A stretch of DNA of 64,000 bases from Escherichia coli (GTDB lineage Bacteria > Pseudomonadota > Gammaproteobacteria > Enterobacterales > Enterobacteriaceae), in NCBI RefSeq assembly GCF_965641715.1, contig NZ_OZ282453.1. The stretch is one strand, 5' to 3'. Shown in pieces: positions 4,692-62,807 of the stretch. Under the pieces are notes generated by a model. The model searched no databases. It saw only the letters and a program-made list of their open reading frames with translations, and was not told the origin of the DNA. A program made the translations under genes and the position numbers. Numbering within the stretch: the first letter of the stretch is position 1; every line of letters starts with the position of its first letter.

Positions 4692-4700
4692 GCTCTTTCC

Positions 4701-7700
4701 TTATTCAAACAGGGCTTCAATATCGTTAATTAGCTCGCTGGCGGTGATGGCATCGAGTACGGAGAGCTGCGCTTCCTGTATTGAATTACTCCCCCAGCCA
4801 TAGCTTTCCGCTTTGCCTTCCCATAGCCACAGCTTGCTTAAGAGTTGCTCGGCACTCAGTTCGGCTGGCGACATGCCTACCGCAAAGCCTTCATCGATTT
4901 CCATGATTAACGACCAGCGGCCCAGAGGTTTGATCATCCAGCCGATCCAGCCTCCATCCTGTGGTTCGCCCTTTATCCAGCCTTTATTCGCCAGCCCCAT
5001 TACCCGACCGCTCGGGCATTTTCTGCCTGCCCAGCGGGTCAGTTCGCTGGCATTGCGCTCGGTTTCTGTCAGGGCGTAACTGTTACGGTCGAGCTGGCGG
5101 AACGGCGGTAGCAGTTCGTAGTCGGCAAAAAGCTGCCCAAATGCGGCGGCATCCGTCGGTGATATTTCCAGAACGTGAGGAATACCAACAGAGATATCGC
5201 CTTCCGGCAGGGTGAAAAGATCATCGTCAGCGGTGCTGTAGCTGTTATCTTCCGCTACGCGGAAGCACGTCAGTAGCTGGTTTTCGGTGCTATAAACGCC
5301 CCAAATCAGACGGCGGGTTAAGTGGTGTACCAGTGGATGTTCAACCAGGAAGAGCTGAAAGTTTTCTGGCGACCAGCGGCGACGCAGGCACATGGCGGAT
5401 TCCAACCTTGCTACCTGCTGGGCGGCGACGGTACGCGCATCTTTTTTCAGCAGTTTGTAGCGGTTAACAGCATCGTTCGCCTGTGATTCATCATCGCTTT
5501 TGTTTGGTTTGGGCAGGTCTTTCAGACGGCTGCCGGAAGCGTCACGCACAAACGGTTTTAAGGTTTCATCAAAGCTGACGGTGAACTGGCGTGGGCCGAA
5601 ATCCAGCAGCAACGAACCGTTATCATCCAGACTGAGATCCGGTGCTAACCGATCTTCAAGCTCCGCCACTGTCAGTTCGCGACTTTCAGCAATGTCGGCA
5701 ATTTTCTCTTTCGCCCGCTCCTGTAAAGCTTTGAATTTCAGTTTCTGAGCAATGCCGTTAAGCTGCATCAGAGCGATATCACTACCGATAGCGGCGAGAA
5801 TATCCAACCCAACGGTGGCGCGTTTATGCTGAGATTCGCCAGGCCAGGCGCGTATTAATGGCGTCAGTTTGCGAGCGGTGTCGTCGTTACCGAGAACACA
5901 TAACGCAGTGAACGCCCAGCTTTCTTTCGATGGTGCACCCGTAGTCAGCCAGGCGGTAAACAGATCCCAGGCAAATTCAGCCAGTGAGTCGGCGGTACAG
6001 GCATCTTTCACCTGCAATAATCCCGGATACAGCGCCTCTTCCTGAGGGAAGCGGAGCATTTCACCGAGGTGGAGGAGGGCGTTATCTGGCAGTACCTTGC
6101 TGCTATTTTTGAGTTTTGGGCGAGTCCATAATGGAGGTTGATAAAACAACGGTAAAGGGGGGATTTTCGCCGGGTATTTACCCACAGGACTGTTGTCGTT
6201 ATTTTTATTTTGAGTTTCCCAGGGCGGCGAGACTAGTACCATTGGTAGAATTTCTGAGTTTGCAAAATCTTCATTGCGACTATTCAGCAATTGCTGACAT
6301 TGTTGCAATAAATTTGCCGCTTGCGACGATAATCCGATGACTAATTTTTCGACCAATAAAGGATTTGCATTAAGTAATGAAACCAGCAACGTATGTTTGC
6401 GTTTATCATCTTTTTTTACCAATTCTTCGGCTAATGCCGCTATCGTGGCAGAAGGAAAATTTTCGGCACTTTTTATTAGTCGTTCATAACAGCGTTTATT
6501 AGTATCGGCGGCTTCGATGAGTGCCGTAATGGCCAACGGATGATTAATACATTTCAGTACGTCACCGCAATTATCTTCTTCAGCATAGGAAGCCAGGCGA
6601 GCCAGTGCCGCTATACCTTGTTCCCGTAATACCGTAGCTGACCAACTGGCACCATAGGTGTTAAATACATCAATGTATTGATAGTTCTCCAGTATTTCGA
6701 GCGTGAATGGATCTGTCGCTACCAGTTTCAACATTTCAAGTTGTGGAACATCTGCGACCTGGTGTAAACGATGTACGATCTCATGGGCCACTTCGGGTAT
6801 TTCTGGCATTAAAATGGCAATTAACGGTTGGCGATAGAGTGATATATCTGGTAACGCAACGAGTAATTTTGCAATGCAATTTTGCCATACTTCTTCTTCT
6901 GCTAGTGATAAATGTTTACGCAGACGTAAACTAAATTTGTCGTTATTCCTTCTATAACTGTCCTTGCTGCTATCTGCATAATTAATAAAGAAAGTCAAAT
7001 GTTCATCTTTATAGTCAAAATCGAAATCAATTTGCCACCAGAAGATGACAGTTTCAGTTGCGTATTCGATACCGAAGGTGCTTACAATTTCATCCAGCAA
7101 CTCGGATGAGGTTTCATCATTCCAGCCCTGACAAAAACATATTTCCAGAAAAGTAAGTACCGCCATAGTACGCGCGGGTATCTCAGTCTTTTGGGCCTTA
7201 ATTAAGCTGATTGCCTGGCTAATCGCATCAGCCCATTCATCAGAGCATGAGCTGTAATCGAAAGTCAGATTTTTATAATAATGATAAGTACGATTTGCCA
7301 ATCGGGAAATTAAATTTTGTTTTTCGGGTTTGGTTGGTTTTTTAACTGGCTCTCCCGGCCAAAGGCGGTGGCTGAGGGCATGGCGGGCAATATTCGGGGG
7401 AAGAATAATGGGATCGTTGTCTGCCAGCCAGGGTAAACCATTAGTTGCTGCCTGGCGATTTATTGAGGCTTTTTCCTCTGTGACCAGGACTTTCTTTGCT
7501 GAGGCATCATGTGAGTGAGCGTTAGCGTCTACTTGCTCCACATACCCCTTCTTCACCTTCTCCGCAATCAGCTTCAGTTCCACTTTTTCCGCCGCCGCAG
7601 CATCTGCAAAGCTTTTTACCTGACTTTGCCCGTTAGTGCCGACTTTACCCCAGGTTATATGCAGCTCGTTTCCCTGCTGCTCCACCGCCCAGAATTTATG

Positions 7701-29515: not shown

Positions 29516-30568
29516 ATGACAGATATTGCGCAGTTGCTTGGCAAAGACGCCGACAACCTTTTACAGCACCGTTGTATGACTATTCCTTCTGACCAGCTTT
29601 ATCTCCCCGGACATGACTACGTAGACCGCGTGATGATTGACAATAATCGCCCGCCTGCGGTGTTACGTAATATGCAGACGTTGTACAACACCGGGCGTCT
29701 GGCTGGCACAGGATATCTTTCTATTCTGCCCGTTGACCAGGGCGTTGAGCACTCTGCCGGAGCTTCATTTGCTGCTAACCCGCTCTACTTTGACCCGAAA
29801 AACATTGTTGAACTGGCGATCGAAGCGGGCTGTAACTGTGTGGCATCAACTTACGGCGTGTTGGCGTCGGTATCGCGGCGCTATGCGCATCGCATTCCAT
29901 TTCTCGTAAAACTTAATCACAACGAGACGCTAAGTTACCCGAATACCTACGATCAAACGCTGTATGCCAGCGTGGAGCAGGCCTTCAACATGGGCGCGGT
30001 GGCGGTTGGTGCGACTATCTATTTTGGCTCGGAAGAATCACGTCGCCAGATTGAAGAAATTTCTGCGGCTTTTGAACGTGCGCACGAGCTGGGCATGGTG
30101 ACAGTGCTGTGGGCCTATTTGCGTAACTCCGCCTTTAAGAAAGATGGCGTTGATTACCATGTCTCCGCCGACCTGACTGGTCAGGCGAACCATCTGGCGG
30201 CAACCATAGGTGCAGATATCGTCAAACAAAAAATGGCGGAAAATAACGGCGGCTATAAAGCAATTAATTACGGTTATACCGACGATCGCGTGTACAGCAA
30301 GTTAACCAGCGAAAACCCGATTGATCTGGTGCGTTATCAGTTAGCTAACTGCTATATGGGCCGGGCCGGGTTGATAAACTCCGGCGGTGCTGCAGGCGGT
30401 GAAACTGACCTCAGCGATGCAGTGCGTACTGCAGTTATCAACAAACGCGCTGGCGGAATGGGGCTGATTCTTGGACGTAAGGCGTTCAAGAAATCGATGG
30501 CTGACGGCGTGAAACTGATTAACGCCGTGCAGGACGTTTATCTCGATAGCAAAATTACTATCGCCTGA
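29516..30568 (+). CDS. fbaB: Fructose-bisphosphate aldolase class I
   Basis: 350 aa from [24 protein letters not shown]; the track ORF starts 24 codons upstream. Confidence 0.9.
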
Positions 30569-41904: not shown

Positions 41905-42180
41905 ATGAGTATCCGTATCGAGATAAATCATCAGTATGTAGTTACAAGCGATCGCTACCAGTTCATTTTGCAGGAAAAGAAAGTGGCGACTGCTGGAAAA
42001 AATAAAGGTAGCGAATGGCTTGATACTGTCGGGTATTACCCGACGATTCAAAAACTGATTTCTGGTCTGGTACTACATGACCTTTTAAATGGCGGTGCTG
42101 ATAGTTTTGCGGCGTTGGGTGAGCAGGTCGAGCAGTTGGGACTGCAATGTCAGACCGCGTTTTGTGCTGATGGCCGTTGA
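41905..42180 (+). CDS. Small early ORF (91 aa), hypothetical
   Basis: Track ORF. Confidence 0.4.
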   Translation: MSIRIEINHQYVVTSDRYQFILQEKKVATAGKNKGSEWLDTVGYYPTIQKLISGLVLHDLLNGGADSFAALGEQVEQLGLQCQTAFCADGR

Positions 42181-44461
42181 GACTCGGGGGCGTATTGCCC
42201 CCTCGCTAGCCCTGCCAATATCTAAGCGCACCGGCGATACTTTCGTTGGTGCTTATCCCTGGAATGCTCCCCGCGCTGCCATTGGCCGTGACAGACCCCT
42301 TACACGTGCCGAATTCCGTCAGGTGCAAGGTGTTTTATACCGGATTGACCGCCTGCCTTTCTTTCTTAAGACGTTGTTTACTTCCCGTTATAACTTCATT
42401 CGTCGCACAAAGAGCCCGCCCGGGGCGCTCTATTTCCTGAAAAACACCTTTGAGCGGAAGCTGTTGCCGCGTCTTGAGCGCGTTAACGAGCTGTGCGGGA
42501 TGAATGAATCTGCGTCGATTGGTTTCTTGTCTGAGCGTGACGAATATGCGCGCTTGCCTGATATGAATGACAAAGAGCTGAAAAAATTTGCGGCCAGAAT
42601 TGCCGCGCAGCTCTGGCGTAAATACGAGGAACTCAGCGACGAATGGGCTGAGGCATTCGGCGGTAAAGAGACCCTTTTCACCGATGAGGCGCAGGTGCAC
42701 ATATATGGTCAGGTGGCTGGTGTTGCACGCGCGTTCAACTTAACCCCGCTCTACTGGAAAAAATACCGTAAGGGTCAGATGACGATCCGCATGGCGTTTT
42801 CCGCTATTTCCCGTCTGATAAAAGATGATTGGTGGGTTAACCAGCTCAAGGCGCAGCGTATGCGCTGGCGCGAGGCGCTGCTTATCGCTGCCGGTGAAGT
42901 CAACAAAGACCGTTCACCTTACGCCAGCAAAATGGCGATCCGCGAGGTTCACTCGCGCCGGCTGGCTAATCTCGAATACCTGAAATCCTGTGAGCTGGAA
43001 AACAAAGTTACCGGCGAACGTATCGACCTCATCAGTAAAGTCATGGGGAGTATTTCAAACCCTGAAATACGCCGTATGGAGCTGATGAACACCATTGCCG
43101 GAATTGAACGCTATGCGGCCAGCGTTGGTGATGTGGGAATGTTTATCACGCTGACCACGCCGTCGAAGTATCACCCGACCCGACAGGTCGGCAAAGGTGA
43201 CAGCAAAACGGTGCAGCTCAATCACGGCTGGAACGAAACCGCATTCACCCCTAAAAACGGCCAGCGCTATCTGTGCCGAATCTGGAGCCTGATGCGTACC
43301 GCTTTCAAAGATAACGATTTGGAAGTGTATGGGATGCGCGTTGTCGAGCCGCACCACGACGGCACGCCACACTGGCATATGATGCTTTTTTGCAAACTCA
43401 GTCAGCGTAAAGCTATCAACGAAATTATGCGTCGTTATGCCCTCAAAGAGGACGGACACGAAAAGGGCGCGGCAAAACAGCGCTTTGAGTCGCGTCACCT
43501 TAATCAGGGGGGCGCGGCGGGTTATATCGCCAAATACATTGCCAAAAATATCGACGGCTACGCGCTTGACGGTCAGCTCGATCACGATACCGGCAAATCT
43601 CTGAAAGATACGGCCGCAGCCGTAACCGCATGGGCGTCTACATGGCGTATCCCTCAGTTTAAACCGATTGGCCTCCCGACAATGGGCGCTTACCGCGAAC
43701 TGCGTAAGCTGCCGCGCGGGGTGAGTATCGCCAGCGAGTTTGACGACCGTGTCGAGGCCGTCCGGGCTGCTGCAGATGAGGGGGAATTTGACCTGTACAT
43801 CAGCGCGCAGGGTGGGGCAAACATGCCGCGTGATGCTCAGGCGGTCAGGGTCGCCCGTAAGGTGACGGATGAGGTAAACGAATACGAGGAGGATATCGAG
43901 AAAGTGGTCGGTATTTATGCCCCTCATCTTGGGGTGAGCCGCGTACATGTAACCCGTACAGCGGAATGGCGCATAGTTCCAAAGGTTTTGGCCGTTGAGC
44001 CTTTGACCTTAAAAAGCGGCTCTGCCGCGCCTCGGAGTCCTGTCAATAACTGTGGAAAGCTTGCCGACGGTGGCGATCCAGTTATGACACCTACACCGTC
44101 TGAGCAAGCCGCAGCGGTGTTAAATCTGATTGAGGCCGGGGTTATCGGCTGGAATGAGCCAGACGTCATGAAGGTTCTTAACGGCGCGTTAAAAGCTGGC
44201 GCACCTCGCAATAATCGCCAGCAAAGAAGCAATGCGCCACTCAAAACGAGCGAGCAAGCTCCATCAGCCAGGATGACAACACCAGAAAGGGATCGCGTGG
44301 CGAAAATTCGTTTCGATTTGGCTCAGGAGGGCATTACCCCAGAACGGTGGGCGCTCGAAGCGCTGGCGCGTGGGGCAACGGTGATTTATGGCGATAAAAA
44401 AATCAAATACGCGGCTGCTGATGAGTGGCCGGGATTCTCAATTCAAGAGGAGCAGAATTAA
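42170..44461 (+). CDS. A: Replication initiation endonuclease A (rolling-circle Rep)
   Basis: About 763 aa from MAVETRGRIAPSLALPISKRTGDTFVGAYPW; HUH-like motif (HHDGTPHWHMMLF) and active-site Tyr region (AGYIAKYIAKNIDGY). Confidence 0.9.
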   Translation: MAVETRGRIAPSLALPISKRTGDTFVGAYPWNAPRAAIGRDRPLTRAEFRQVQGVLYRIDRLPFFLKTLFTSRYNFIRRTKSPPGALYFLKNTFERKLLPRLERVNELCGMNESASIGFLSERDEYARLPDMNDKELKKFAARIAAQLWRKYEELSDEWAEAFGGKETLFTDEAQVHIYGQVAGVARAFNLTPLYWKKYRKGQMTIRMAFSAISRLIKDDWWVNQLKAQRMRWREALLIAAGEVNKDRSPYASKMAIREVHSRRLANLEYLKSCELENKVTGERIDLISKVMGSISNPEIRRMELMNTIAGIERYAASVGDVGMFITLTTPSKYHPTRQVGKGDSKTVQLNHGWNETAFTPKNGQRYLCRIWSLMRTAFKDNDLEVYGMRVVEPHHDGTPHWHMMLFCKLSQRKAINEIMRRYALKEDGHEKGAAKQRFESRHLNQGGAAGYIAKYIAKNIDGYALDGQLDHDTGKSLKDTAAAVTAWASTWRIPQFKPIGLPTMGAYRELRKLPRGVSIASEFDDRVEAVRAAADEGEFDLYISAQGGANMPRDAQAVRVARKVTDEVNEYEEDIEKVVGIYAPHLGVSRVHVTRTAEWRIVPKVLAVEPLTLKSGSAAPRSPVNNCGKLADGGDPVMTPTPSEQAAAVLNLIEAGVIGWNEPDVMKVLNGALKAGAPRNNRQQRSNAPLKTSEQAPSARMTTPERDRVAKIRFDLAQEGITPERWALEALARGATVIYGDKKIKYAAADEWPGFSIQEEQN

Positions 44462-44925
44462 TGAGCAAAATCCATGAGTTAAAAATTGCACCTGAGTATT
44501 TTAACTCTGTGATATCTCAGGAAAAACGTGCTGAATTTCGTCTCAATGACCGCGATTATTCTAGCGGTGATATTCTCGGGTTGCATGAATGGGAACCGGT
44601 AAACAGATATACCGGGAAACGTGTATCAGTGAGGGTGACAAACGTTACGGATTTATCTGAATGGGCGGAAAATTATGTGATGCTGAGTTTTCAGTTAATG
44701 ATGCCAGATGTCCAGTGCGGTATGTCCCTAATGAACTGGAAAGAGTTAAGCGAGAAGGGGCTTGTTTTCAGAGTTAATCACGAAATTCTACACCCGTTAG
44801 GGCTGGCTATTAGATATGAAACACTTAACAGCGTTTCTGGTAGGGCTTACATCGCTGATGATGGTGTCTGGCAATATTCCGACAAGTTGGTCGCAGATGC
44901 TAAAAAAAATGGGTGGTTAAAATGA
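44461..44925 (+). CDS. Hypothetical phage protein (154 aa), possible PUA/ASCH-like fold
   Basis: Start ATG overlaps the A stop; N-terminus MSKIHELKIAPEYFNSVISQEKRAEFRLNDRDY. Confidence 0.5.
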   Translation: MSKIHELKIAPEYFNSVISQEKRAEFRLNDRDYSSGDILGLHEWEPVNRYTGKRVSVRVTNVTDLSEWAENYVMLSFQLMMPDVQCGMSLMNWKELSEKGLVFRVNHEILHPLGLAIRYETLNSVSGRAYIADDGVWQYSDKLVADAKKNGWLK

Positions 44926-45161
44926 GTCATATGCGAATGATGCCAGTGCCGCCGATACATTCAACGCAAAACATTAAGCTGATGGCCGTCGTACATCGCC
45001 TGCAACAAATTATGATTAACGAGAATCTGACCCCTGACGAACTGGTCGGGTGTGCCGGTGTCGTCCGGGATAATCACCGCAAATACAGCGATATCAGCAA
45101 TCCGAAAATTGAGGCGTTTCGGCCACCAAATATGGCAAAGCCACCACCGCGTCGACCATAG
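44913..45161 (+). CDS. Hypothetical small ORF (82 aa)
   Basis: Track ORF only. Confidence 0.3.
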   Translation: MVKMSHMRMMPVPPIHSTQNIKLMAVVHRLQQIMINENLTPDELVGCAGVVRDNHRKYSDISNPKIEAFRPPNMAKPPPRRP

Positions 45162-45443
45162 CAAACGCCGCCGGTGCTGAAACTTGTTTTCAGTGCCAGC
45201 GGTGTTGAGCAACGAGCCCCGCGAGACGTTAGCCTGCACCGTAGAGACCACCCCCAACCGGCACGATTAAAGTCGGTTTTATTATGCAATTTTCCCACAA
45301 TTTCCCGGTTTTTTAGCCGTGCATGCAACAGGTGCATTTTTTTGCATACGTTGGGGATGCCTGTTCTGGCCGCGCGCCGCCAGAGCAGGCGCGGATCCAG
45401 AGTGGTCATGCAACTGCATTAAAAACGACCCATAAAGCGGGCA

Positions 45444-45462
45444 GGCGAGGCGGGGTAAGCGT
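45444..45462. other. Candidate cos (cohesive-end) site
   Basis: Seen: GGCGAGGCGGGGTAAGCGT; the first 12 nt match the P2/186 cohesive end GGCGAGGCGGGGAAAGCAC as I recall it; sits in a GC-rich, structured non-coding stretch. Confidence 0.5.
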
Positions 45463-45533
45463 TGCGCGCGCCTGTCAAAGATATTAAGATTGTCTCAAAA
45501 TCGATTGATTTTATTGAACTAATGGAGCTAGGA

Positions 45534-47090
45534 ATGATTAAGGGTATAGGTCTTCAAAACTTCAGGAGCTTTGTCAACAAAACGTTTATTGATTTAAAAC
45601 CAATTACAGTATTTGTTGGTAAGAACAGCAGTGGTAAAAGTTCCCTATTGCGCACATTTCCTTTACTTCGTCAATCTGTAGAAGAAAATACTACTGGCCC
45701 AATACTATGGTATGGGAGATATGTGGATTTTGGCGATTTTACAGATGTACTTTCCCGAAACTCTGAAAAAAAAGAAATTACGTTTAGTTTTTCACTCTCA
45801 ATTCCGCCAGAGGTTTCACAAAGATATACATATTATCGTTCTACTGATTTAGCAAAGCAACCAACAGATATTGAAGCAGAGTTAACTGTTTACTCTAAAG
45901 ATAAAAAAACAAAAACGAAAACGATTAAGCTTATATTGGCTGATTTAACAATATTTATTTCAATGGATGAGAGTAGTAATGTTAAATTACTCATTGAATC
46001 AGATGATAAAACAATAGAGCGTGATGGGATAATAGCTAAAAATCTTGGGCAGTTCATACCAAATCTAATTTTGAAGGGTAAGGAAGACAGTCCTCCTCCA
46101 AGCACATCATTCTATTTGAGACATTCTAGGCATGACAGGGCGTTAGAATTGTCATTTATTGATTCAGCGGCGAAATATATAAAGAAATATTTCCATACTA
46201 AATCTGATATAAATCAAGTGACAGAGGCATTCAAAAGAATTGGCTTTATACCCAAAGCGTACGCTAGTAAATTAGTTGCTTTTCTATTTAAGGAACAAAA
46301 AGTTTTTAGTAGAAACTTTGAATTTCAACATGATGAAATAATGAATGAGTTATATCCATTTATAATTGGATGGAATATTAATAATCTTATAGATATAATA
46401 AATACATCCTTGTCAGATTCATTCAGAAATGTAAAGTACATAGCTCCACTGCGTGCTACATCAGAAAGATTTTATCGTTTTCAAGATTTACAGGTTAATG
46501 AGATAGATCATACTGGTTCCAATCTTGCAATGCTTTTGAATTCATTAAGACCGGCTGATAAATCAAAATTTGAAGATTGGACAAAGTTAAATTTTGATTT
46601 CATTATCAAGGTTGAACAAAGTGGCTCTCACTTTGCAATTTTAATAAACACCGGTGAAAATAGTGAGAACTATAATGTTAGTGATATGGGGTTTGGTTAT
46701 TCTCAGGTTTTGCCGATAGTTACAGCCATTTGGCTTGAGACAGAACGTCGTGCTACCACGGTTAGAAAACCTATAACATTTATCATTGAGCAGCCAGAAT
46801 TGCATTTACATCCGTCATATCAGCATAATTTAGCAAGTATTTTTGCAAAAGTAGTAACTAAAGCAAAAGAAAATAATGTAGATTTGAAGATAATTTTTGA
46901 GACACATAGCCAGACCATGATTGAAGCACTTGGTGAATATATTGAGGAAAATGAAAGTCTTTCACAGGATGATATTTCAATACTGGTATTTGAAAAAGAT
47001 GATAAGCAGCAGACTATAGTTAAGAAATCTTATTTTGACGAGAATGGTTTCCTAAAAAATTGGCCGGTTGGCTTTTTCTCGGGTAAGTAG
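45534..47090 (+). CDS. Cargo gene 1: ABC/OLD-type (AAA_15/AAA_21-like) ATPase, about 518 aa
   Basis: Walker A GKNSSGKSS; Walker B/D-loop FIIEQPELHLHP; H-loop-like IFETHS; AT-rich; SD GGAG upstream of the ATG chosen at MIKGIGLQNFRSF. Confidence 0.75.
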   Translation: MIKGIGLQNFRSFVNKTFIDLKPITVFVGKNSSGKSSLLRTFPLLRQSVEENTTGPILWYGRYVDFGDFTDVLSRNSEKKEITFSFSLSIPPEVSQRYTYYRSTDLAKQPTDIEAELTVYSKDKKTKTKTIKLILADLTIFISMDESSNVKLLIESDDKTIERDGIIAKNLGQFIPNLILKGKEDSPPPSTSFYLRHSRHDRALELSFIDSAAKYIKKYFHTKSDINQVTEAFKRIGFIPKAYASKLVAFLFKEQKVFSRNFEFQHDEIMNELYPFIIGWNINNLIDIINTSLSDSFRNVKYIAPLRATSERFYRFQDLQVNEIDHTGSNLAMLLNSLRPADKSKFEDWTKLNFDFIIKVEQSGSHFAILINTGENSENYNVSDMGFGYSQVLPIVTAIWLETERRATTVRKPITFIIEQPELHLHPSYQHNLASIFAKVVTKAKENNVDLKIIFETHSQTMIEALGEYIEENESLSQDDISILVFEKDDKQQTIVKKSYFDENGFLKNWPVGFFSGK

Positions 47091-47092
47091 TT

Positions 47093-48205
47093 ATGTTGAT
47101 TAATATCGAAAATGCGACACCTGAGAAGGTGCTAAATAACTCATTTGCCATAGCGGTTGAAAATATACTTCGGGCATTCGCTGAACAAAAACACTTGGTT
47201 ATAGGGGCAAGGGTTTTTTTTAAAACTATTATCAATGATCAAAGCGGGCTTTATAGCCTTTCATCAAAAAGTTACGCGCAAGAGGCTTTGTCGGGTCTAA
47301 CAGAGTACTATGCTATCTTGGATCAGGTCTCATTTTATGTATCTGTCGACTTTAATATTAGTGATAAATCATTTAAATGGGTTCAGATCGGTGAATCTTT
47401 TAAATTTGTTTGTGGTCCATTGTATTTTAATGACTCGGCACAATTGCAAAAAACGAAAATAGTATGTGAAAATCCTTTGGATTCTGATTTTTTTAAGGTT
47501 ATAGCGGCTCATTATGCCGAAGGTATTAACTTATCTCGCTGCGAAATGGGTTTTATCGCTCTAAATGGCGGTGGGGGCAGTACTAAGGATATATTCGAGC
47601 GTGCAATTCAAAATAATGAGATAGTTTTTTGTATTGTGGATAATGACAAAAAACATCCTGGAGCCCCATTCGGAGGTACTTGCTCACATTTTTTGGGCTC
47701 ACAAATTACTCGCTCAGGTTTCGTGGAGATTTTAGATGTACATGAAATAGAATCTCTAGTTCCTTTATCGACAATTGAAGATGTATTAAGAAGTCAAAGT
47801 CAATTGCAACAAAAAGAAAAATCTCTCATTTTCTTTAAGCATCTTTGCTCCGTAGATGAATCAGTAAAATTTTATATTGACCATAAAAAAGGTTTTGATT
47901 TTAAAACAGCCCTTGAACTCGATCGAAAACATGGTGCATATTGGCGTCCGATATTAAAGAAGCTTGATATAAAATATGATTGTGAGTATATCGAATCAAA
48001 ACGTTGTAGCTGCAACGCTGCTTGTGTAAGTTATGATGGTTTTGGAGAGAATTTGCTCAGCAATACATTGAAATATATACAAAAGGGAAGTTTAAAAAAA
48101 TATAATCCTCACCTAACACCAGTGCTTTCTGATAAATGGTATAAGTTAGGTAAGAATTTCTTTAGTTGGAGTTGTGGTCCATATAAAAAAGCAAGGGTTG
48201 GTTAA
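47093..48205 (+). CDS. Cargo gene 2: 370-aa partner protein, possible TOPRIM/DUF4435-like effector with C-terminal Cys cluster
   Basis: ATG 2 nt after the cargo-1 stop; hydrophobic strand plus DxD (IVFCIVDNDKKHPG); CEYIESKRCSCNAAC cluster; AT-rich. Confidence 0.65.
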   Translation: MLINIENATPEKVLNNSFAIAVENILRAFAEQKHLVIGARVFFKTIINDQSGLYSLSSKSYAQEALSGLTEYYAILDQVSFYVSVDFNISDKSFKWVQIGESFKFVCGPLYFNDSAQLQKTKIVCENPLDSDFFKVIAAHYAEGINLSRCEMGFIALNGGGGSTKDIFERAIQNNEIVFCIVDNDKKHPGAPFGGTCSHFLGSQITRSGFVEILDVHEIESLVPLSTIEDVLRSQSQLQQKEKSLIFFKHLCSVDESVKFYIDHKKGFDFKTALELDRKHGAYWRPILKKLDIKYDCEYIESKRCSCNAACVSYDGFGENLLSNTLKYIQKGSLKKYNPHLTPVLSDKWYKLGKNFFSWSCGPYKKARVG

Positions 48206-48300
48206 ATTATCACAGCCCCGATAAAGTGGGCTGTGATGTTATTATCTGTGGTTCTTGAGTTACAGGGCTGAATATAATGTTGAGATGTTTATTTTGAAAA

Positions 48301-49308
48301 TCAAAGTGAATATTTTTTAAATCTTATAACTTCCATTTCTAACCAGTTGTTTAGTTCTTTGAACCGTTCCTGTAAAGGAGTTAACTCATTTCGGACAAAC
48401 ACTTGTGCAGCTTTTACAACATCACCAAAACCGCCAACATTGTCAGGCATAATTCCCATCATTTGTGGTGGTACCCTATGAGCACTCAACAAATCTTCTG
48501 CACTAACCTTTTTGATATTGAAAAAATCATCTTTCGTGGCGACTTCACTCAACGGCACAATCTTGATGCCATCCGGTTTCCCGTTGGGCGCGTAGAAAAA
48601 CAGGTTTTTGAAATTCCCGAGTCCTTTTGAGTCGCGCATCGCGTTACGGAGAGATTCAACATCGGTGCTGCTCTGTGCCGCGTCGGTGACATACATGATG
48701 TACCCCGCATGTGCGCCATTCTGATAATACTTGCGGCGAAACAGGGTAGCGGATTCATTCAGCCAGGCGGAATTAAGCGCGCTCAGGTATTCCGGCATCC
48801 CGTACAGCTCCTGATTGATATCGGGCTCAAGCAGGTGACACACAGAACCGGGGGCGAACGGGTGCGGCTGGGTGTAGCTCGACACGTACCAGTAAACGCC
48901 ATCTTCGACACCCCGGCGGGTGTATTTGGCCGGTGAGGTTTCCAGTTTTAAGAGCTGGCCGGTGACGCTCATGCGCTTCTCAAGATAGCCGTTGGCAAAA
49001 ACCAGATAATCAAGCACAAGGCGACTGAAATCCTGACGTGACAGCAACGGGTGCGGGATATAGGTGCTCGTCAGAATGTTACGTTTCACGTAAATCGGCG
49101 AGCTGTGATGGACGGCGGCGCGCAGGCTTTTTGCCAGTCCCGAGAAATTGACCGGCGGCTCGTACCATTTCCCGTTATTGATACACTCTACGTAGTCGAG
49201 GATGTCGCGGCGATCCAGAACGGGAGAAGGCTCACCAAAGGTGAACGCCTCCATTTTTTGCGGTGCGCTGGCGGTCATTGTGGCGGGTTTCTTCTGTCGT
49301 TTTTTCAT
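48301..49308 (-). CDS. Q: Portal protein (gpQ)
   Basis: 335 aa; position and length as P2 Q; divergent from the capsid operon. Confidence 0.85.
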   Translation of the reverse strand: MKKRQKKPATMTASAPQKMEAFTFGEPSPVLDRRDILDYVECINNGKWYEPPVNFSGLAKSLRAAVHHSSPIYVKRNILTSTYIPHPLLSRQDFSRLVLDYLVFANGYLEKRMSVTGQLLKLETSPAKYTRRGVEDGVYWYVSSYTQPHPFAPGSVCHLLEPDINQELYGMPEYLSALNSAWLNESATLFRRKYYQNGAHAGYIMYVTDAAQSSTDVESLRNAMRDSKGLGNFKNLFFYAPNGKPDGIKIVPLSEVATKDDFFNIKKVSAEDLLSAHRVPPQMMGIMPDNVGGFGDVVKAAQVFVRNELTPLQERFKELNNWLEMEVIRFKKYSL

Positions 49309-49309
49309 C

Positions 49310-51079
49310 TTAGTTAATATCCAGAATTGAGGTTGATTGCATGCCGCTACCGGCGGAAAGCGGCTCGTTTAACAGGGCGTGCATGGTCGCCCACGCAATA
49401 TCCGCGTGACTGGCTTCCTCGCTGCGGCTGGCTTCATAGGTGGCACTGCGCCCGCTGCTGGTCATGGTTTTACGGATCGCCATAAATGACTGCGTGATGT
49501 CGGTTGCTCCGGCGTCATATTCCAGACACCCGCGTCGGATGGTGTCTTTCGCTTTCAGCACCATCGCGGTTTTCATTTCCGGCGTGTAGCGAATGGCGCG
49601 CGCTGCCGGGAAGAAGGAGCGCACGAGCTGGTAAACACCCTGGCCGATGCCGGTCGCATCGATGCCGATATACTCGACGCAATATTTCTCTGTCAGCTCG
49701 CGGATGGCCTCGGCCTGCGTCGCAAAACCCATCCCTTTCCACTGGTGACGCTCAAGGATGCGGAACTTGCCACCGGCAACCAGTGGCGGAGCCAGTACCG
49801 CACAGCCTGCGCTGTCGCCGGTGTGCGACGGGTCATAGCCAATCCAGACCGGACGCCAGTTAAACGGACGGTCAGAGAACGGCGCAAAGTCCTCCCATTC
49901 TTCCATCGCATCGACCATGCAGCGCTGCAGCTCCTCGAACGGGAATACCGACGCTTTATCGTCGACGAATTCGCACATGAAGAGGTTGCGGAAATCGTCG
50001 GCGCTGTTTTCCTGTTTCAGTTGATCCAGATTAAACAGGGTGCAGCCACCGGCGAGGGCATCCTCAATGGTGACGATCTGCCGCCACTGCCCGTCCGGGC
50101 ACAGCACGCCACCGGCGAGCGCCTTATGACTGATGTCAATGTCGACACGCTCACTCGCGCTGCTGCGTCCCCTGTTGAACAGCTCACCTGACCAGAACGG
50201 ATACGCGCCGTGCGCCAGCGTCGAAGGGGTTGAAAAATAGGTGGTGCGCAGGTGGGATTGTGACGCCATCCCCGAGGCCACTTTACGCAGCCGCTGAAAG
50301 TTGGGGATCCAGAAGATTTCATCGACATACAGGTCGCCGTTATGGCTCTGCGCGGTGTTGGAGTTTGTCCCGAGGAAAATCAGCTCTGCACCGTTGTTGC
50401 CGATAACAATCGGGTCGCCTGACAGGTCGACGTCGACCATGCGCGCAAAGGCGATGATGTACTTTCGGAACACGTAAGCCAGCGTCTTACTGGCTGACAA
50501 AAATATCTGGTTTTGCCCGGTTTTGAGGGCGCGCAGTAATGACTCACGGGCAAAGTAGAACGTCGCGCCAATCTGGCGTGATTTGAGGATGTGGCGAATA
50601 CGGTGCGCGATACCGGCCTTGTGCCAGTTGAGCTGATACTCAAAGGACTGGTCGAAGAAAATCTCTTCCAGCTTTTCGATGGCCTCATCGCTGAAAAAAT
50701 TGCGTTTCGGCTTGCGGCGATCGCCCTTGTTACGACTGGCAATGTTGGGGTTTAAATCCACTTCATTACCGGTCTGGCCGTAGCGGTTGATGCGTGCGAA
50801 CCGTTCCATCTGGCGTGACAGAAAGTCAGCGACCTTAAAGTCATGCGGCGTCAGGTCAGGCTTTGCATAAAGCTGAATCAGGCGCGCCTCGAGCGTCGTT
50901 TCCACGCGGTTAAGCGGGGCGGTTTCCTCCCACCCGTCACGCTGTTTCCAGCTCTGCACGGTCGGGCGCTTAACCTGCAGTGTGTCGGCGATTTGTGGCA
51001 CGGAAAATCCCTGCCAGAACAACAGCCGCGCCTGTCGTCGCGGGTCATGCAAAAGGGAGAGGTCAGTCGAAATGGTCAT
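49310..51079 (-). CDS. P: Terminase large (ATPase) subunit (gpP)
   Basis: About 589 aa from MTISTDLSLLHD; the track ORF begins at an upstream TTG. Confidence 0.85.
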   Translation of the reverse strand: MTISTDLSLLHDPRRQARLLFWQGFSVPQIADTLQVKRPTVQSWKQRDGWEETAPLNRVETTLEARLIQLYAKPDLTPHDFKVADFLSRQMERFARINRYGQTGNEVDLNPNIASRNKGDRRKPKRNFFSDEAIEKLEEIFFDQSFEYQLNWHKAGIAHRIRHILKSRQIGATFYFARESLLRALKTGQNQIFLSASKTLAYVFRKYIIAFARMVDVDLSGDPIVIGNNGAELIFLGTNSNTAQSHNGDLYVDEIFWIPNFQRLRKVASGMASQSHLRTTYFSTPSTLAHGAYPFWSGELFNRGRSSASERVDIDISHKALAGGVLCPDGQWRQIVTIEDALAGGCTLFNLDQLKQENSADDFRNLFMCEFVDDKASVFPFEELQRCMVDAMEEWEDFAPFSDRPFNWRPVWIGYDPSHTGDSAGCAVLAPPLVAGGKFRILERHQWKGMGFATQAEAIRELTEKYCVEYIGIDATGIGQGVYQLVRSFFPAARAIRYTPEMKTAMVLKAKDTIRRGCLEYDAGATDITQSFMAIRKTMTSSGRSATYEASRSEEASHADIAWATMHALLNEPLSAGSGMQSTSILDIN

Positions 51080-51245
51080 GGTTGCCTCGTACTGGTGAAT
51101 ACGGGGCAAGGCTAAGGAAATAGCCGGGTATTATCGCTAACCCCCTGTTGTGTCAGGGGTTGCACTTCCGCAAGCGGTGGCTGATGTGGGGCGGAGTCGG
51201 GAAACTACCCCCGAACCGAAAACCCAACATCAGGACACCTGAACA

Positions 51246-53231: not shown

Positions 53232-53987
53232 ATGACGAGTCCCGCAGCGCGTCACATGATGCGGGTCTCGGCCTCTGAAACTGCGCGGCGGGCTGCTGCT
53301 CCGCTGCGCAATGCAACTGCCTATGAGCAGATGCTCGTCAAGCTGGCCGCAGACTGTCGCACGTTAAAACAAATCCGCTCCAACGAGCGCAAGGCAGACA
53401 AAAAACGTGAGCTGTTACCGTTTTATCTGCCGTGGGTGGCTGGAGTCATCGCCAGTGGCAAAGGGGCACAGGATGACATCGTCATGACCGTCATGCTCTG
53501 GCGTCTTGATGCTGATGACATTGCCGGTGCGCTGGAAATCGCCCGCTACGCGATGACGTATGGCCTGACCATGCCGACCGGCGGCCACCGCCGCACAACG
53601 CCGTATTTACTGGCCGAAGAGGTCGCCCTGTCAGCGCAGCGCTTGCTTGATGCAAAACAGCCAGTCGTGCTGTCGCTCCTGCTCGACACCATCGCACTGA
53701 CCGAACGTGCAGACATGCCCGATATCGTGCGCGCGAAGTTGTACAAAATCACCGGCTACGTGCTGCGTGATGCTGGCAACCTGACTGACGCGCTGGCGCA
53801 CCTGCAGCGTGCGATCCAGTTAGAACGGACTATCGGTGTGAAAAAGGATATTGAGCAGCTTGAACGCGCGCTGAGACCCAAACCAGAACCTGCACCCAAA
53901 CAGAATAAACCGCGTACGCGCAAACCTGCCGCTAAACCGGCGGCACAGCGCGGGCGTCCCCCGAAAGCGGCAAAAGCCGCAGGTTAA
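53232..53987 (+). CDS. M: Terminase small/endonuclease subunit (gpM)
   Basis: 251 aa; position after N; basic C-terminus. Confidence 0.8.
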   Translation: MTSPAARHMMRVSASETARRAAAPLRNATAYEQMLVKLAADCRTLKQIRSNERKADKKRELLPFYLPWVAGVIASGKGAQDDIVMTVMLWRLDADDIAGALEIARYAMTYGLTMPTGGHRRTTPYLLAEEVALSAQRLLDAKQPVVLSLLLDTIALTERADMPDIVRAKLYKITGYVLRDAGNLTDALAHLQRAIQLERTIGVKKDIEQLERALRPKPEPAPKQNKPRTRKPAAKPAAQRGRPPKAAKAAG

Positions 53988-56946: not shown

Positions 56947-57038
56947 GAGTCCTAAGAAAATAGAGAAAGCAGATATTATACAAAAAAGATAATATCTGCT
57001 GCTGGGTCGATATTTGAATGTATTTATTTAATCTATTG

Positions 57039-57791
57039 CTAACGTTCGAATATTATTATCACCCCAAGAGTGAGATGTATATGATCTTCTATTTGTTCAT
57101 ATTCTTCTTGGGTGTAAGAAAGTTTAGCTAATTCTTCTGTTGCTGAAAAGACATCAATGGATACTTGGACGCCTGATGGGATTTCATTTTTTATTTCATT
57201 AATGTATTTGTTGTATTTTCTTGTGATTAGTATTATTGCGCGATCTCTGTCGACGGTGGTTGAGCAATATCGATTGGATTTGCTGTTGTTATTGTGGAAT
57301 GATTCGAATGCGCAATTGAGGGCAAGTCTTAGATTTGATGATCCTGTATTTCCAGTGTGATTGAAGTATTCTATGTTTCTTCTTAAGTCTTCAAATAGTT
57401 TTGCCTTATTTGGATTGTCCCCTTTAACTTCAATAGCACATTTTGGATAATCAAACCCATTATTATTGCCTAGTATGGCAATGTCTATCCTACCTTTTCT
57501 GGTTGTGTTTGCTTTGATTCTTAGTATTTGCCTTGAAAATATTTTCCCCGGCGTTAGTCTTTTTGAAAATGGCACCGTTGAAGTTATAAAATCCCCTGTA
57601 TCATATTCAAAAATTATTTTCTCATCATCTATGTGAAAATTTTTACTATCAAGTAGGGCTTTGCCTATTGATACAGTAGCGACGTATTCGGTATTGATTT
57701 TACCACCAGAACTGAAATTCATTAAACGTGTGATTTTAGCTGCATTGGACATGCCATCCTTTACTGCTGTGATTATTTCGTAATTGTCCAT
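57039..57791 (-). CDS. Cargo gene (moron), 250 aa, candidate PD-(D/E)xK-fold nuclease
   Basis: Opposite strand to the late genes; AT-rich; motif RIDIAILG...CAIEVKGD (D...E-x-K). Confidence 0.6.
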   Translation of the reverse strand: MDNYEIITAVKDGMSNAAKITRLMNFSSGGKINTEYVATVSIGKALLDSKNFHIDDEKIIFEYDTGDFITSTVPFSKRLTPGKIFSRQILRIKANTTRKGRIDIAILGNNNGFDYPKCAIEVKGDNPNKAKLFEDLRRNIEYFNHTGNTGSSNLRLALNCAFESFHNNNSKSNRYCSTTVDRDRAIILITRKYNKYINEIKNEIPSGVQVSIDVFSATEELAKLSYTQEEYEQIEDHIHLTLGVIIIFER

Positions 57792-58109
57792 ATTATTTAC
57801 TCAGGTAACTGTTTTATTTTGATTGTTCTTACTGGATGTTTTATAAGTATAATAATTTGGATTATGCTAATCAACTAGTCTTCTTTCGGCTTTTACTAAT
57901 GACTCATTTATGAATGATAATGTTATGATTCCAGCAACCGAAGTGGGTATTTTTTTGCACCCAAGTGATCGTTTTGTGGAACTAATATGAGTCTATAAGT
58001 ATCCCTATTTCACTAGTAGGTTGAGACGTCACACTTGCTGGCTGTTGTTTCATGCCCCACAAAACTCAGCTCAATTGTCGCTGGCCTCACTAGGCGGCAT
58101 CCTTTCCCC

Positions 58110-58751
58110 ATGAATACTTTAAATTCCATTCAGGATATCGCCCGAGCGATCCGAAACCTTATCCGCACCGGCATTGTGACTGCAGTCAATCCCGATGAGG
58201 GGCTTTGTCGTGTCCAGACCGGCGGCATGCAAACCACCTGGCTAAACTGGCTGACCTGCCGCGCCGGTCGCTCGCGTGTCTGGTGGGCTCCCTCGGTTGG
58301 CGAGCAGGTGCTTATTCTTGCCATTGGTGGCGAGCTTGACACCGCCTTTGTGCTGCCTGGTATTTTCTCTGATGACCATCCCGCGCCGTCGACCTCGCCC
58401 GATGCGTTTCACGTCACTTTTCCTGACGGGGCGGTTATCGAGTACGAGCCCGAAAACGGGGCGCTCACCGTGTCCGGTATCAAAACTGCCGACGTTACCG
58501 CATCGGAGTCCATCACCGCCACCGTGCCGGTGGTGCTGGTTAAGGCATCGACCTGCATCACCCTCGATACACCCGAGGTGGTGTGTACCAACAAGCTGAC
58601 AACCGGCACGCTCGAAGTGAAAAAAGGCGGGACGATGTCGGGGAACATCGAGCACACCGGCGGGAAATTTACCTCGAACGGCGTGCAGGTCGATGACCAC
58701 GACCACGGCGGCGTGAAGCGGGGCGATGACAGAACGGTGGGGACACAATGA
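58110..58751 (+). CDS. V: Baseplate spike/assembly protein V
   Basis: About 213 aa from MNTLNSIQDIARAIRNL. Confidence 0.85.
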   Translation: MNTLNSIQDIARAIRNLIRTGIVTAVNPDEGLCRVQTGGMQTTWLNWLTCRAGRSRVWWAPSVGEQVLILAIGGELDTAFVLPGIFSDDHPAPSTSPDAFHVTFPDGAVIEYEPENGALTVSGIKTADVTASESITATVPVVLVKASTCITLDTPEVVCTNKLTTGTLEVKKGGTMSGNIEHTGGKFTSNGVQVDDHDHGGVKRGDDRTVGTQ

Positions 58752-60546: not shown

Positions 60547-62229
60547 ATGACAGTGAAATATAAAACCGTTATCACCCGAGCCGGTGCGGAAAAACTGGCG
60601 GCGGCGACGCTCCCGAACGGGAAAAAAGTCAATTTTGCGGTGATGGCCGTCGGGGACGGTGGCGGTAAGCTTCCCGAGCCGGACGCCAGTCAGACAAAAC
60701 TCGTCAATGAGGTCTGGCGTCATGCGCTGAACAAAATCTGCCTGGACAAAAAACATAAAAATTATGTCGTGGCGGAGCTGGTGATCCCCCCGGAGACCGG
60801 CGGTTTCTGGCTGCGTGAAATGGGGCTTTACGATGACACCGGCACGCTGATTGCGGTCGGCAATATGGCCGAAAGTTATAAGCCCGAACTGGCGGAAGGG
60901 TCAGGCCGCGCACAGACGCTGCGCATGGTGATCATGGTGAGCGATATCGACACCGTCGAGCTGTCCATCGATACAACACTGGTGATGGCGACGCAGGATT
61001 ATGTCGACGATAAACTCGCAGAGCATGAGCAGTCCCGTCGCCATCCTGACGCCACGCTGAAAGAAAAAGGGTTCACGCAGTTAAGCAGTGCGACCGACAG
61101 CACGTCTGAGGCGCTCGCCGCGACGCCGAAAGCGGTCAAAGTGGCGTATGACCTTGCGAAAGGTAAATACACGGCTCAGGACGCGACCACGGCGCAGAAA
61201 GGGATTGTCCAGCTCAGTAGCGCCACCGACAGCGTGTCTGAGACCCTCGCCGCGACGCCGAAAGCGGTTAAGGCGGCGAATGATAATGCTAATGGCCGCG
61301 TTCCTTCCTCGCGCAAAATTAACGGACATTCCCTGAATGCTGACATCAGTGTCACCTCGCAGGATATTTTCGACGGTCAGGCTATTGGGCTGGTAATGGA
61401 GGATTTAGATACCCTGAAAACGCCGGGTATTTACTTTCAGCCAGCGAACGCCAATACCTCAGCCGCCAGACATTACCCTGAAAATAACGCCGGGACGCTG
61501 GTCATTTATAAAAATGCCGGAGTGACTCAGGTATACCGGGTTTATAACAGCTCCCGGAGCTACTCGCGCAGCCAGTATTCAACAGGTGCATGGACACCGT
61601 GGACGCCTGATGATGTTTTTCCGGTAGGCGCGCCCGTTGCGTGGCCGTCTGACAGTGTTCCTGCTGGTTATGCCGTCATGCAGGGACAAACTTTTGATAA
61701 AGCCGCTTATCCGCTTCTTGCGGCTGTGTACCCATCGGGTGTTATTCCTGATATGCGGGGCTGGACAATCAAAGGTAAACCGGCCAGCGGTCGTGCAGTG
61801 CTTTCACAGGAACTGGATGGCATCAAGTCACATACTCACAGCGCAAGTGCATCAAATACAGACTTAGGTACTAAATCAAGCAGTGCATTTGATTACGGTA
61901 CTAAAACGGCCAGCACATTTGACTATGGTACTAAAACCACTAACAGCACCGGAGCGCATGCGCACGGTATTTCTGTTGGTAACACAGGCGCAGGTAATGG
62001 TATTTCAGCAGGTTACAACTCAGGGCTGGGCAATGGAACGACGGGGAGTGCAGGTGCGCACGCCCATACGGTCGGTATTGGCGCTCACAACCACACCGTT
62101 GGAATTGGTGCTCACAGTCATACTGTGGCAATAGGGGCTCACGGACATAACATCACTGTTAACGCAGCCGGTAACGCTGAAAACACCGTCAAAAACATCG
62201 CATTCAACTATATCGTGAGGCTTGCCTGA
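60547..62229 (+). CDS. H: Tail fiber protein H
   Basis: 560 aa; conserved N-terminus [20 protein letters not shown]; internal tandem repeat; divergent C-terminus. Confidence 0.85.
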
Positions 62230-62807
62230 TGACTTTCAAAATGACCGGGAAAAGCCGGACAATCACTGTTTATAACTATCGCGCAGATACCTGTGAATTT
62301 ATTGGAAAAGGTGACGCCCTGATCCCACCATTTACCGGACTCCCTGCCTGTTGTACCAGTGAAAAACCGCCAGAAACCAGCGCGGGATGTATTCCCGTTT
62401 ACGACACTGAAAGCGGACGATGGAACATCACTGAAGACCACAGGGGTGAGGTTGTCTATGACACTGAAACAGGTCATCAGATGGAGATAACCGAACCGGG
62501 TAAATATCCGACAGGGACAACAACCGCTGCACCTGAAAACCCGTGGCAAAAATGGAATGGTAAAGCATGGATTGATGATGCTGATGCAGAACGGAATGCA
62601 TTGACTGAGTCTGCGAAAAACAACAAAAGCATGCTTCTTAAGCAGGCCAATACTGCGGTTGCGACATTACAGGACGCTGTTGATCTGGAGATGGCAACCG
62701 AAGATGAAAAAGCACAGCTCGCGGCATGGAGGAAATACCGTGTTTTACTGAGCCGCATCCAGCCAGAGAATGCCCCGGATATTGAATGGCCGCCGCTGCC
62801 AGTCTGA
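62229..62807 (+). CDS. G: Tail fiber assembly chaperone G
   Basis: 192 aa; start overlaps the H stop. Confidence 0.75.
   Translation: MTFKMTGKSRTITVYNYRADTCEFIGKGDALIPPFTGLPACCTSEKPPETSAGCIPVYDTESGRWNITEDHRGEVVYDTETGHQMEITEPGKYPTGTTTAAPENPWQKWNGKAWIDDADAERNALTESAKNNKSMLLKQANTAVATLQDAVDLEMATEDEKAQLAAWRKYRVLLSRIQPENAPDIEWPPLPV

Follow-up and report, generated by a model that had tools for sequence, protein, structure and literature searches.

The question raised by this locus is whether a short, GC-rich, ORF-poor stretch between the replication and packaging genes of an Escherichia coli prophage is the site at which terminase would cut the phage DNA, and on which side of that cut the neighboring cargo cassette lies. 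The window (the whole 64,000-nucleotide stretch of contig NZ_OZ282453.1, assembly GCF_965641715.1, that was analysed) carries a P2/186-type prophage integrated beside yegS/yegR, with the gene order int, repressor, cox, A, DUF3850, a 76–82-aa ORF, cos, a two-gene cassette, Q, P, O, N, M, L and on to the tail genes (Table 1). Homology to related phages indicates that 45162–45469 is very probably the cos region of an apparently intact P2/186-type (Peduoviridae) E. coli prophage, at which terminase would stagger its nicks by 19 nt and whose Q-side spacer appears to have been replaced by cargo. On one side of the site lies the region of gene A and on the other the portal gene Q, which like P is encoded on the opposite strand; P2 Orf91, the homologue of the A-side DUF3850 protein, is itself annotated as DUF3850. 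All 33 of the 33 phage and flanking genes are full length relative to an annotated relative, the window ending within the tail genes, as is the large subunit of the terminase, the enzyme expected to cut this cos.

Table 1. Positions of the features in and around the cos region, the cassette and the adjoining phage genes (window coordinates).
Feature	Position	Strand	Remarks
Replication gene A	42170–44461	+	between cox and the DUF3850 gene
A-side genes: DUF3850/ASCH protein (P2 Orf91 homologue) and 76–82-aa ORF	44461–45161	+	Pfam DUF3850, 1.8e-18
Strong hairpin right after the stop of the 76/82-aa ORF	45162–45206	+	inverted repeat 45164–45206; start of the 186-type non-coding block
Homologue of the 186 rho-independent terminator t95b	45256–45286	+	weak stem (45256–45278), then UUUUAUUAU
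Conserved TGCAT-type motifs (GTGCATGCAAC, GGTGCAT, TTGCAT)	45318–45347	.	A side of the cut
GC-rich dyad	45359–45402	.	two inverted repeats
55-bp cos core common to P2, P4 and 186	45415–45469	+	29 bp, 19-nt cohesive end, then TGCGCGC
Predicted 19-nt 5' cohesive end GGCGAGGCGGGGTAAGCGT	45444–45462	+	top-strand cut before 45444, bottom-strand cut after 45462
AT-rich leader	45470–45533	+	GC 0.33; Shine-Dalgarno GGAG at 45524–45527
Cassette gene 1, AAA_15/AAA_21 ATPase with C-terminal DUF3696, 518 aa	45534–47090	+	Pfam
Cassette gene 2, 370 aa, no recognised domain	47093–48205	+	weak PADLOC PDC-M55B match, 2e-4
Hairpin where cassette and portal genes converge	48209–48238	.	in place of the P2/186 tQ/tW terminator
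Portal gene (P2 Q / 186 W homologue)	48301–49308	-	Pfam Phage_portal
Terminase large subunit (P2 P homologue)	49310–51109	-	Pfam Terminase_6N, Terminase_6C, Terminase_5
P2 M homologue	about 53232–53984		part of the terminase proposal

The initial annotation had placed a P2/186-type cos at 45444–45455 on the strength of a 12-mer, GGCGAGGCGGGG, which occurs a single time in the window, on the + strand at those positions. The exact 12-mer appears in none of 100 dinucleotide-preserving shuffles, and if one mismatch is permitted a match is found in 31 of the 100; by itself, therefore, it is weak evidence for cos, and as sole proof it was dropped (31 per cent chance rate) in favor of the 55-bp core and the homology of the flank. 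A core of that length is described for the cos of P2 and P4 in passages of two papers (PMC9594776 and PMC5694545) that both cite Ziermann and Calendar (1990). The arrangement kept between these phages, 29 bp followed by 19 nt and then 7 bp, is found complete around the 12-mer, and a 55-bp pattern, derived from P2, P4, 186 and the window itself, matches the window once (45415–45469) and none of the 100 shuffles. The predicted end is G+C-rich and of the GGCGnGGCGGGGAAAGCAy type, identical at 16 of 19 positions to that of P2 and at 16 of 19 to that of 186. When the cos junctions were rebuilt by joining the ends of the database records, they read, as flank, cohesive end and following seven bases, ...TGCATTAAAACCGCCCCGTGAAGCGGGCG / GGCGAGGCGGGGAAAGCAC / TGCGCGC in P2, ...TGCATTAAAACCGCCCCGCAAAGCGGGCG / GGCGAGGCGGGGAAAGCAC / CGCGCGC in P4 and ...TGCATTAAAACCGACCCATAAAGTGGGCA / GGCGTGGCGGGGAAAGCAT / TGCGCGC in 186, beside ...TGCATTAAAAACGACCCATAAAGCGGGCA / GGCGAGGCGGGGTAAGCGT / TGCGCGC in the window sequence. 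The records of 186 and P2 label bases 1–19 as the cohesive end, and the note on cos in the 186 record has the top strand cut at the 5' end and the bottom strand at the 3' end.

The flank carries further weight. A blastn search of 45100–45540 against 50,697 phage records matched 109 of them, all P2/186-type phages of enterobacteria. The approximately 280 bp upstream of the predicted top-strand cut (45162–45443) match the right ends of 186-type phage genomes at 85–89 per cent identity (E values down to 3e-110), the nearest sequenced phages reaching ∼89–91 per cent in the cos flank. The linear records of 186, Erwinia phage EtG and the Salmonella phages SEN1 and PSP3 each end on the base that aligns to window 45443. 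In 186, a phage with known termini, the homology to its mapped right end (E = 9e-86) spans ∼280 bp of non-coding sequence at 85.5 per cent identity and stops exactly at the right terminus. The alignment with P2/186 cos regions that had been proposed as a check thus bears the placement out, the right end of 186 running up to 45443 and the core of P2, P4 and 186 being matched. Similarity to 186, EtG and Yersinia phages begins at 45162, and all phage and E. coli alignments, including those to 97 cassette-free E. coli genomes, end at 45469, the final base of the core.

This boundary divides what had been read as one GC-rich region, 45170–45533. The description holds for 45170–45469 (GC 0.56, compared with 0.49 for the whole window), and does not hold for 45470–45533 (GC 0.33), which is the leader of the cassette; the marked interval is a composite of a 186-type non-coding cos region (45162–45469) and a cargo leader. 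That the stretch is poor in ORFs was noted correctly: the program-listed ORFs overlap 45170–45533 only by chance, and in a 98.9 per cent identical prophage of E. coli, RefSeq annotates no CDS in the space that separates the 76-aa ORF from the ATPase gene.

The short inverted repeats that had also been seen here are real in the sense that they fold better than shuffled controls. The hairpin at 45164–45206 folds at -29.5 kcal/mol (z = -4.9 against shuffled controls), and the same sequence is present 3' of orf97 in 186. Downstream of it, 45256–45286 aligns to 186 positions 30436–30463, labelled terminator t95b; the stem folds at just -8 kcal/mol (z = -1.45), and a terminator function for it here would follow from the homology. 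The block 45162–45300 that holds both is specific to 186-type phages. A strong hairpin 3' of the upstream ORF and a homologue of a 186 terminator might suggest that the region acts chiefly in transcription or as structured RNA, serving the cassette or the operon upstream as terminator or regulatory leader, and resembles cos only incidentally. We consider this exceedingly improbable, given that the two elements are confined to 45162–45286 and coexist with cos in 186 itself, that an Rfam search of the region returned no family (best match MIR531, E = 0.34) and that a 55-bp core, combined with alignments that stop exactly where phage genomes end, cannot be a coincidence; as the sole explanation, it is excluded by the alignment to the mapped termini of 186 and P2.

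Reading the region as cos, the A-side elements nearer the core invite comparison with what a terminase would need. GGTGCAT and TTGCAT (45331–45347) are invariant across the window, three E. coli relatives, a Yersinia phage, 186, P2 and P4 in a single alignment (A1), and form a local peak of conservation across 111 IMG/VR cos flanks among the matches listed. Because P4 is packaged by the P2 terminase and so must share its needs, the TGCAT-type motifs appear to be the best candidates for a putative terminase recognition site. The GC-rich dyad, of which 45359–45390 folds at about -24 to -27 kcal/mol (z = -2.1), is found in 186-type flanks; in alignment A1 the right end of P4 has a different GC-rich palindrome (ACCGCGCC/GGCGCGGT) at an offset position, and none is visible in the right end of P2.

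The cohesive end itself is a variant. It differs from that of P2 at positions 13, 18 and 19 and from that of 186 at three of the 19 (A5 in place of T, T13 and G18). T13 is common to the window and 34 close E. coli relatives and occurs in none of 120 IMG/VR cos loci among the matches listed, which were found with a pattern that left position 13 unconstrained; at positions 13–15 the diverged relatives read ATA where the window reads TAA. G18 (window 45461) is private to the window, the base being A in 34 of 34 close relatives and in 120 of 120 of the IMG/VR loci listed. It is possible, if improbable, that the region is a genuine cos by descent that is now non-functional, G18 near the bottom-strand cut or T13 blocking nicking such that the prophage and its cassette are locked in the chromosome. 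The uniformity of position 18 would be consistent with this, as would the rarity of these ends, since only one IMG/VR contig has the relatives' T13 variant, the exact cohesive-end sequence of the window was not found in IMG/VR, and no isolated phage of this lineage or with the same cos variant was found in the phage collection. Every phage gene tested is intact, however, and positions 13–14 vary within the lineage (TAA or ATA) without gene decay, which suggests tolerance; position 19 differs even between P2 and 186, and a single substitution such as G18 may be a polymorphism or a sequencing error. A cos that terminase would still cut is the reading carried forward here.

Immediately past the core, the phage similarity stops (at 45469) and returns at 48316, within the 3' portion of the portal gene, which from that point has 77–78 per cent DNA identity to 186 W. 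The interval 45470–48315 has no DNA-level match in the 50,697 phage records. What fills the cos-to-Q spacer is foreign, compositionally distinct DNA, with a GC content of 0.33–0.34 over 45470–48300 and identity steps at both borders. As judged from these alignments, this module of 2.8 kb and two genes has replaced the ∼170-bp spacer and the terminator native to P2/186.

Its first gene matches the Pfam families AAA_15 (2.4e-27), AAA_21 (7e-19) and DUF3696 (3.6e-07) and, in PADLOC, NsnB (3.7e-55) and PDC-M55A (6.9e-46) as well as HEC-03B and AriA, with no NCBIfam family at cut-off; its second has no Pfam, NCBIfam or PDB match. Family-level matches of both genes to a named defense system (e.g. 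Nsn, PARIS, Gabija or OLD) were not obtained, the ATPase matching NsnB, PDC-M55A and AriA only partially, and the cassette is best described from its sequence as a candidate defense module that is no member of a named system. A sigma-70 promoter scan of 44900–45700 found no promoter for the cassette. At its far end, the hairpin at 48209–48238 folds at -20.8 kcal/mol on the + strand and -19.3 kcal/mol on the - strand (z = -4.2 on each); a terminator scan did not call it, as it is without a clear T-run, and its fold alone supports a role as terminator.

The same cassette is present on a diverged backbone in four E. coli genomes, two of which (EC11 and UTAK-6) were compared with the window. Identity to these two is 0.895–0.897 in gene A, 0.89–0.91 in the non-coding cos flank (45162–45414), 0.87 in the 55-bp core and 0.89 in Q, compared with 1.00 in the leader (45470–45533), 0.98 in the two cassette genes and 0.97 in the spacer at 48206–48300. 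Because identity is 0.97–1.00 within 45470–48300 and 0.87–0.91 around it, the cassette has been shared more recently than the backbone, which indicates a recent exchange of the module between backbones ∼11 per cent apart (A, cos and Q), with breakpoints at the cos core and at the portal stop codon. In UTAK-6 (NZ_CP157151.1, coordinates 4068–5711 of locus L130), the RefSeq DUF3696 CDS starts 87 bp further upstream than in other relatives, inside the cos core; this is probably a start-codon artefact, and the equivalent of that start in the window is a TTG at 45462. Among 5,426 complete genomes of E. coli, 38 carry the cassette, and each has it in this prophage slot. That the 55-bp core serves as a bridge for exchange of cassettes between P2-like phages and P4 was considered and set aside, for almost no exchange of defense genes between P2 and P4 has been reported (bioRxiv 10.64898/2026.02.27.708500) and the cassette occurs in E. 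coli in this prophage slot only.

The initial annotation had put the cassette on the Q (portal) side of cos, and this is where it lies, between the core and Q. It had further supposed that the linear genome would start with the cassette, and by the P2/186 convention (base 1 is the first of the cohesive end, and Q follows) the order would indeed be 19 nt, 7 bp and then the cassette. The contrast it drew with P2 is also sound, in that tin and old of the P2 record occupy the A-side interval bounded by Orf91 and cos. In P2 and 186 some 170 bp separate cos from the portal stop codon and hold only the tQ/tW terminator. Since conservation across P2, P4 and 186 reaches just 7 bp past the cohesive end in the direction of Q, the sequence from that point to the portal stop may be regarded as a dispensable slot for insertion or replacement.

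Cargo in this slot is not supported as unusual: the interval is a published hotspot, and filled slots recur in sampled P2-like contigs. A scan of IMG/VR for GGCGNGGCGGGGNAAGCNNNGCGCGC gave at least 120 loci, in which portal and A homologues were located by tblastn; 99 loci with a portal gene are among the matches listed, and as a sample they are neither independent nor unbiased, which makes the figures rough. Among these listed matches, the distance from the cohesive end to the portal stop is at most 200 bp in 83 of the 99, 389–490 bp in three and 1.4–3.7 kb in 13. The 13 large inserts listed comprise about ten different cassettes with a GC content of 0.32–0.37, all of which start directly after TGCGCGC. 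Cargoes in the slot of the listed loci include a retron RT-Toprim of type I-C, a type IV retron RT (RT_IV), NsnA/NsnB, a PD-T4-4/HEC-02-like ATPase pair, PDC-M38 and an OLD/AriA-like ATPase. One such locus (IMGVR_UViG_3300012217_000002, L057) has 1,991 bp from cos to portal with a retron RT-Toprim of type I-C (PADLOC E = 2.9e-204), an insert that matches the published Ec67-type replacement.

In the IMG/VR loci listed, a single locus can have both its A-side and its Q-side slot filled. Among the listed matches with both distances, the 10 loci that carry Q-side cargo have a median A-side distance of 1,585 bp, compared with 2,501 bp for the 58 that do not. The A-to-cos distance in the window, 986 bp, is near the minimum among 70 loci (again among the matches listed), and apart from the DUF3850 gene and the small ORF its tin/old slot is empty.

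Elsewhere in the prophage, an AT-rich insert (GC ∼0.33) lies at 56947–58110 between the tail genes S and V, with an ORF of 250 aa on the minus strand (57039–57791). The 98.9 per cent identical relative has a different gene between S and V, which makes this another variable slot. The tail-fibre genes H and G (60547–62804) are the structural genes most diverged from a close relative, at 91 and 84 per cent amino acid identity, most others being 97–100 per cent identical.

Several earlier reports describe comparable arrangements. The retrons Ec67 and Ec86 are stated in a passage of PMC6868368 citing Dodd and Egan (1996) to replace ∼180 bp between cos and the terminator of the packaging genes, and a passage of PMC5694545 citing Dodd and Egan (1996) and Nakayama (1999) calls the cos-to-Q interval a hotspot. 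The ctx of phiCTX is cargo in the same cos-to-portal slot (PMC6868368, PMC5694545), and phiRSY1 has four ORFs (ORF1–4) between cosL and its gpQ homologue (PMC5694545). Like the cassette in the window, all of these are foreign DNA in the stretch from cos to the portal terminator or stop. The cargo of the window, however, is a two-gene module with a DUF3696 ATPase, neither retron (Ec67/Ec86) nor toxin (phiCTX), and in comparison with Ec67/Ec86 the native terminator has gone as well, a different hairpin standing in its stead.

Of the individual phages, 186 is like the window in its non-coding flank, the layout of its 55-bp core, the upstream hairpin and t95b-like terminator and its portal and terminase neighbors; it differs in having tum/orf97 upstream, where the window has DUF3850 and a small ORF, and in a 170-bp cos-to-tW spacer where the window has a 2.8-kb cassette. 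The cos of P2 and P4 shares with the window the core, the GGTGCAT/TTGCAT motifs and the TGCATTAAAA motif. P4 is further alike, according to the relevant passages of PMC9122126, in carrying variable cargo directly after the core on the left-end side, whereas P2 has its cargo (tin, old) on the A side, nothing but a terminator between cos and Q, and three of 19 cohesive-end positions that differ. The P2 gpA–gpQ defense hotspot (Rousset et al. 2022, PMC9122126) resembles the window in that, as presented in the parts of that paper dealing with it, a cos-adjacent, AT-rich, defense-like cassette lies between gpA and gpQ. Those parts treat A-to-Q as one hotspot and leave the side of cos unstated, whereas in the window the side and the exact boundaries are resolved.

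From these comparisons a course of events may be proposed. After induction, terminase would recognise the conserved A-side sequences of cos and nick the top strand at 45443/45444 and the bottom strand, offset by 19 nt, at 45462/45463. The packaged linear genome would then have a left end of GGCGAGGCGGGGTAAGCGT and TGCGCGC followed at once by the cassette, and a right end of ...AAAGCGGGCA. As nothing past +26 is conserved across P2, P4, 186 and the cargo-bearing phages, the Q side would tolerate replacement, and a 2.8-kb AT-rich candidate defense module could have taken the place of the ∼170-bp spacer and terminator there.

The order in which the two ends of P2/186 DNA leave the virion is not stated in several papers that cite Chattoraj and Inman (1974). 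Entry of the cassette ahead of the remaining genome would follow if, as in lambda, the end with the terminase-binding flank is packaged first and what goes in last comes out first, a lambda rule that has itself been questioned (PMC10287942). For a prophage-encoded defense gene that is expressed in the lysogen, the order of entry may matter little.

The finding of cos is correct yet ordinary, a variant cohesive end and a new cargo in an arrangement already described. Its uses are concrete: the location of cos fixes the ends of the packaged genome, and definition of the cassette as a discrete 2.8-kb module (45470–48300) helps the cloning or testing of a candidate defense system. Examples of cargo in the cos-to-portal interval have been on record since 1996, and the division of the published A-to-Q hotspot by cos into two slots, with a boundary precise to the base, is a small refinement and no new principle. 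On a more speculative reading, of little likelihood, the gpA–gpQ hotspot would be two separate slots split by cos, with Q-side cargo at the terminus of the virion genome 7 bp past the cohesive end; or G18 may have disabled cos and fixed prophage and cassette in place. If the Q-side end does enter the cell first, cassettes in the Q-side slot could be exposed or expressed before circularisation, or could be selected for another role than those on the A side.
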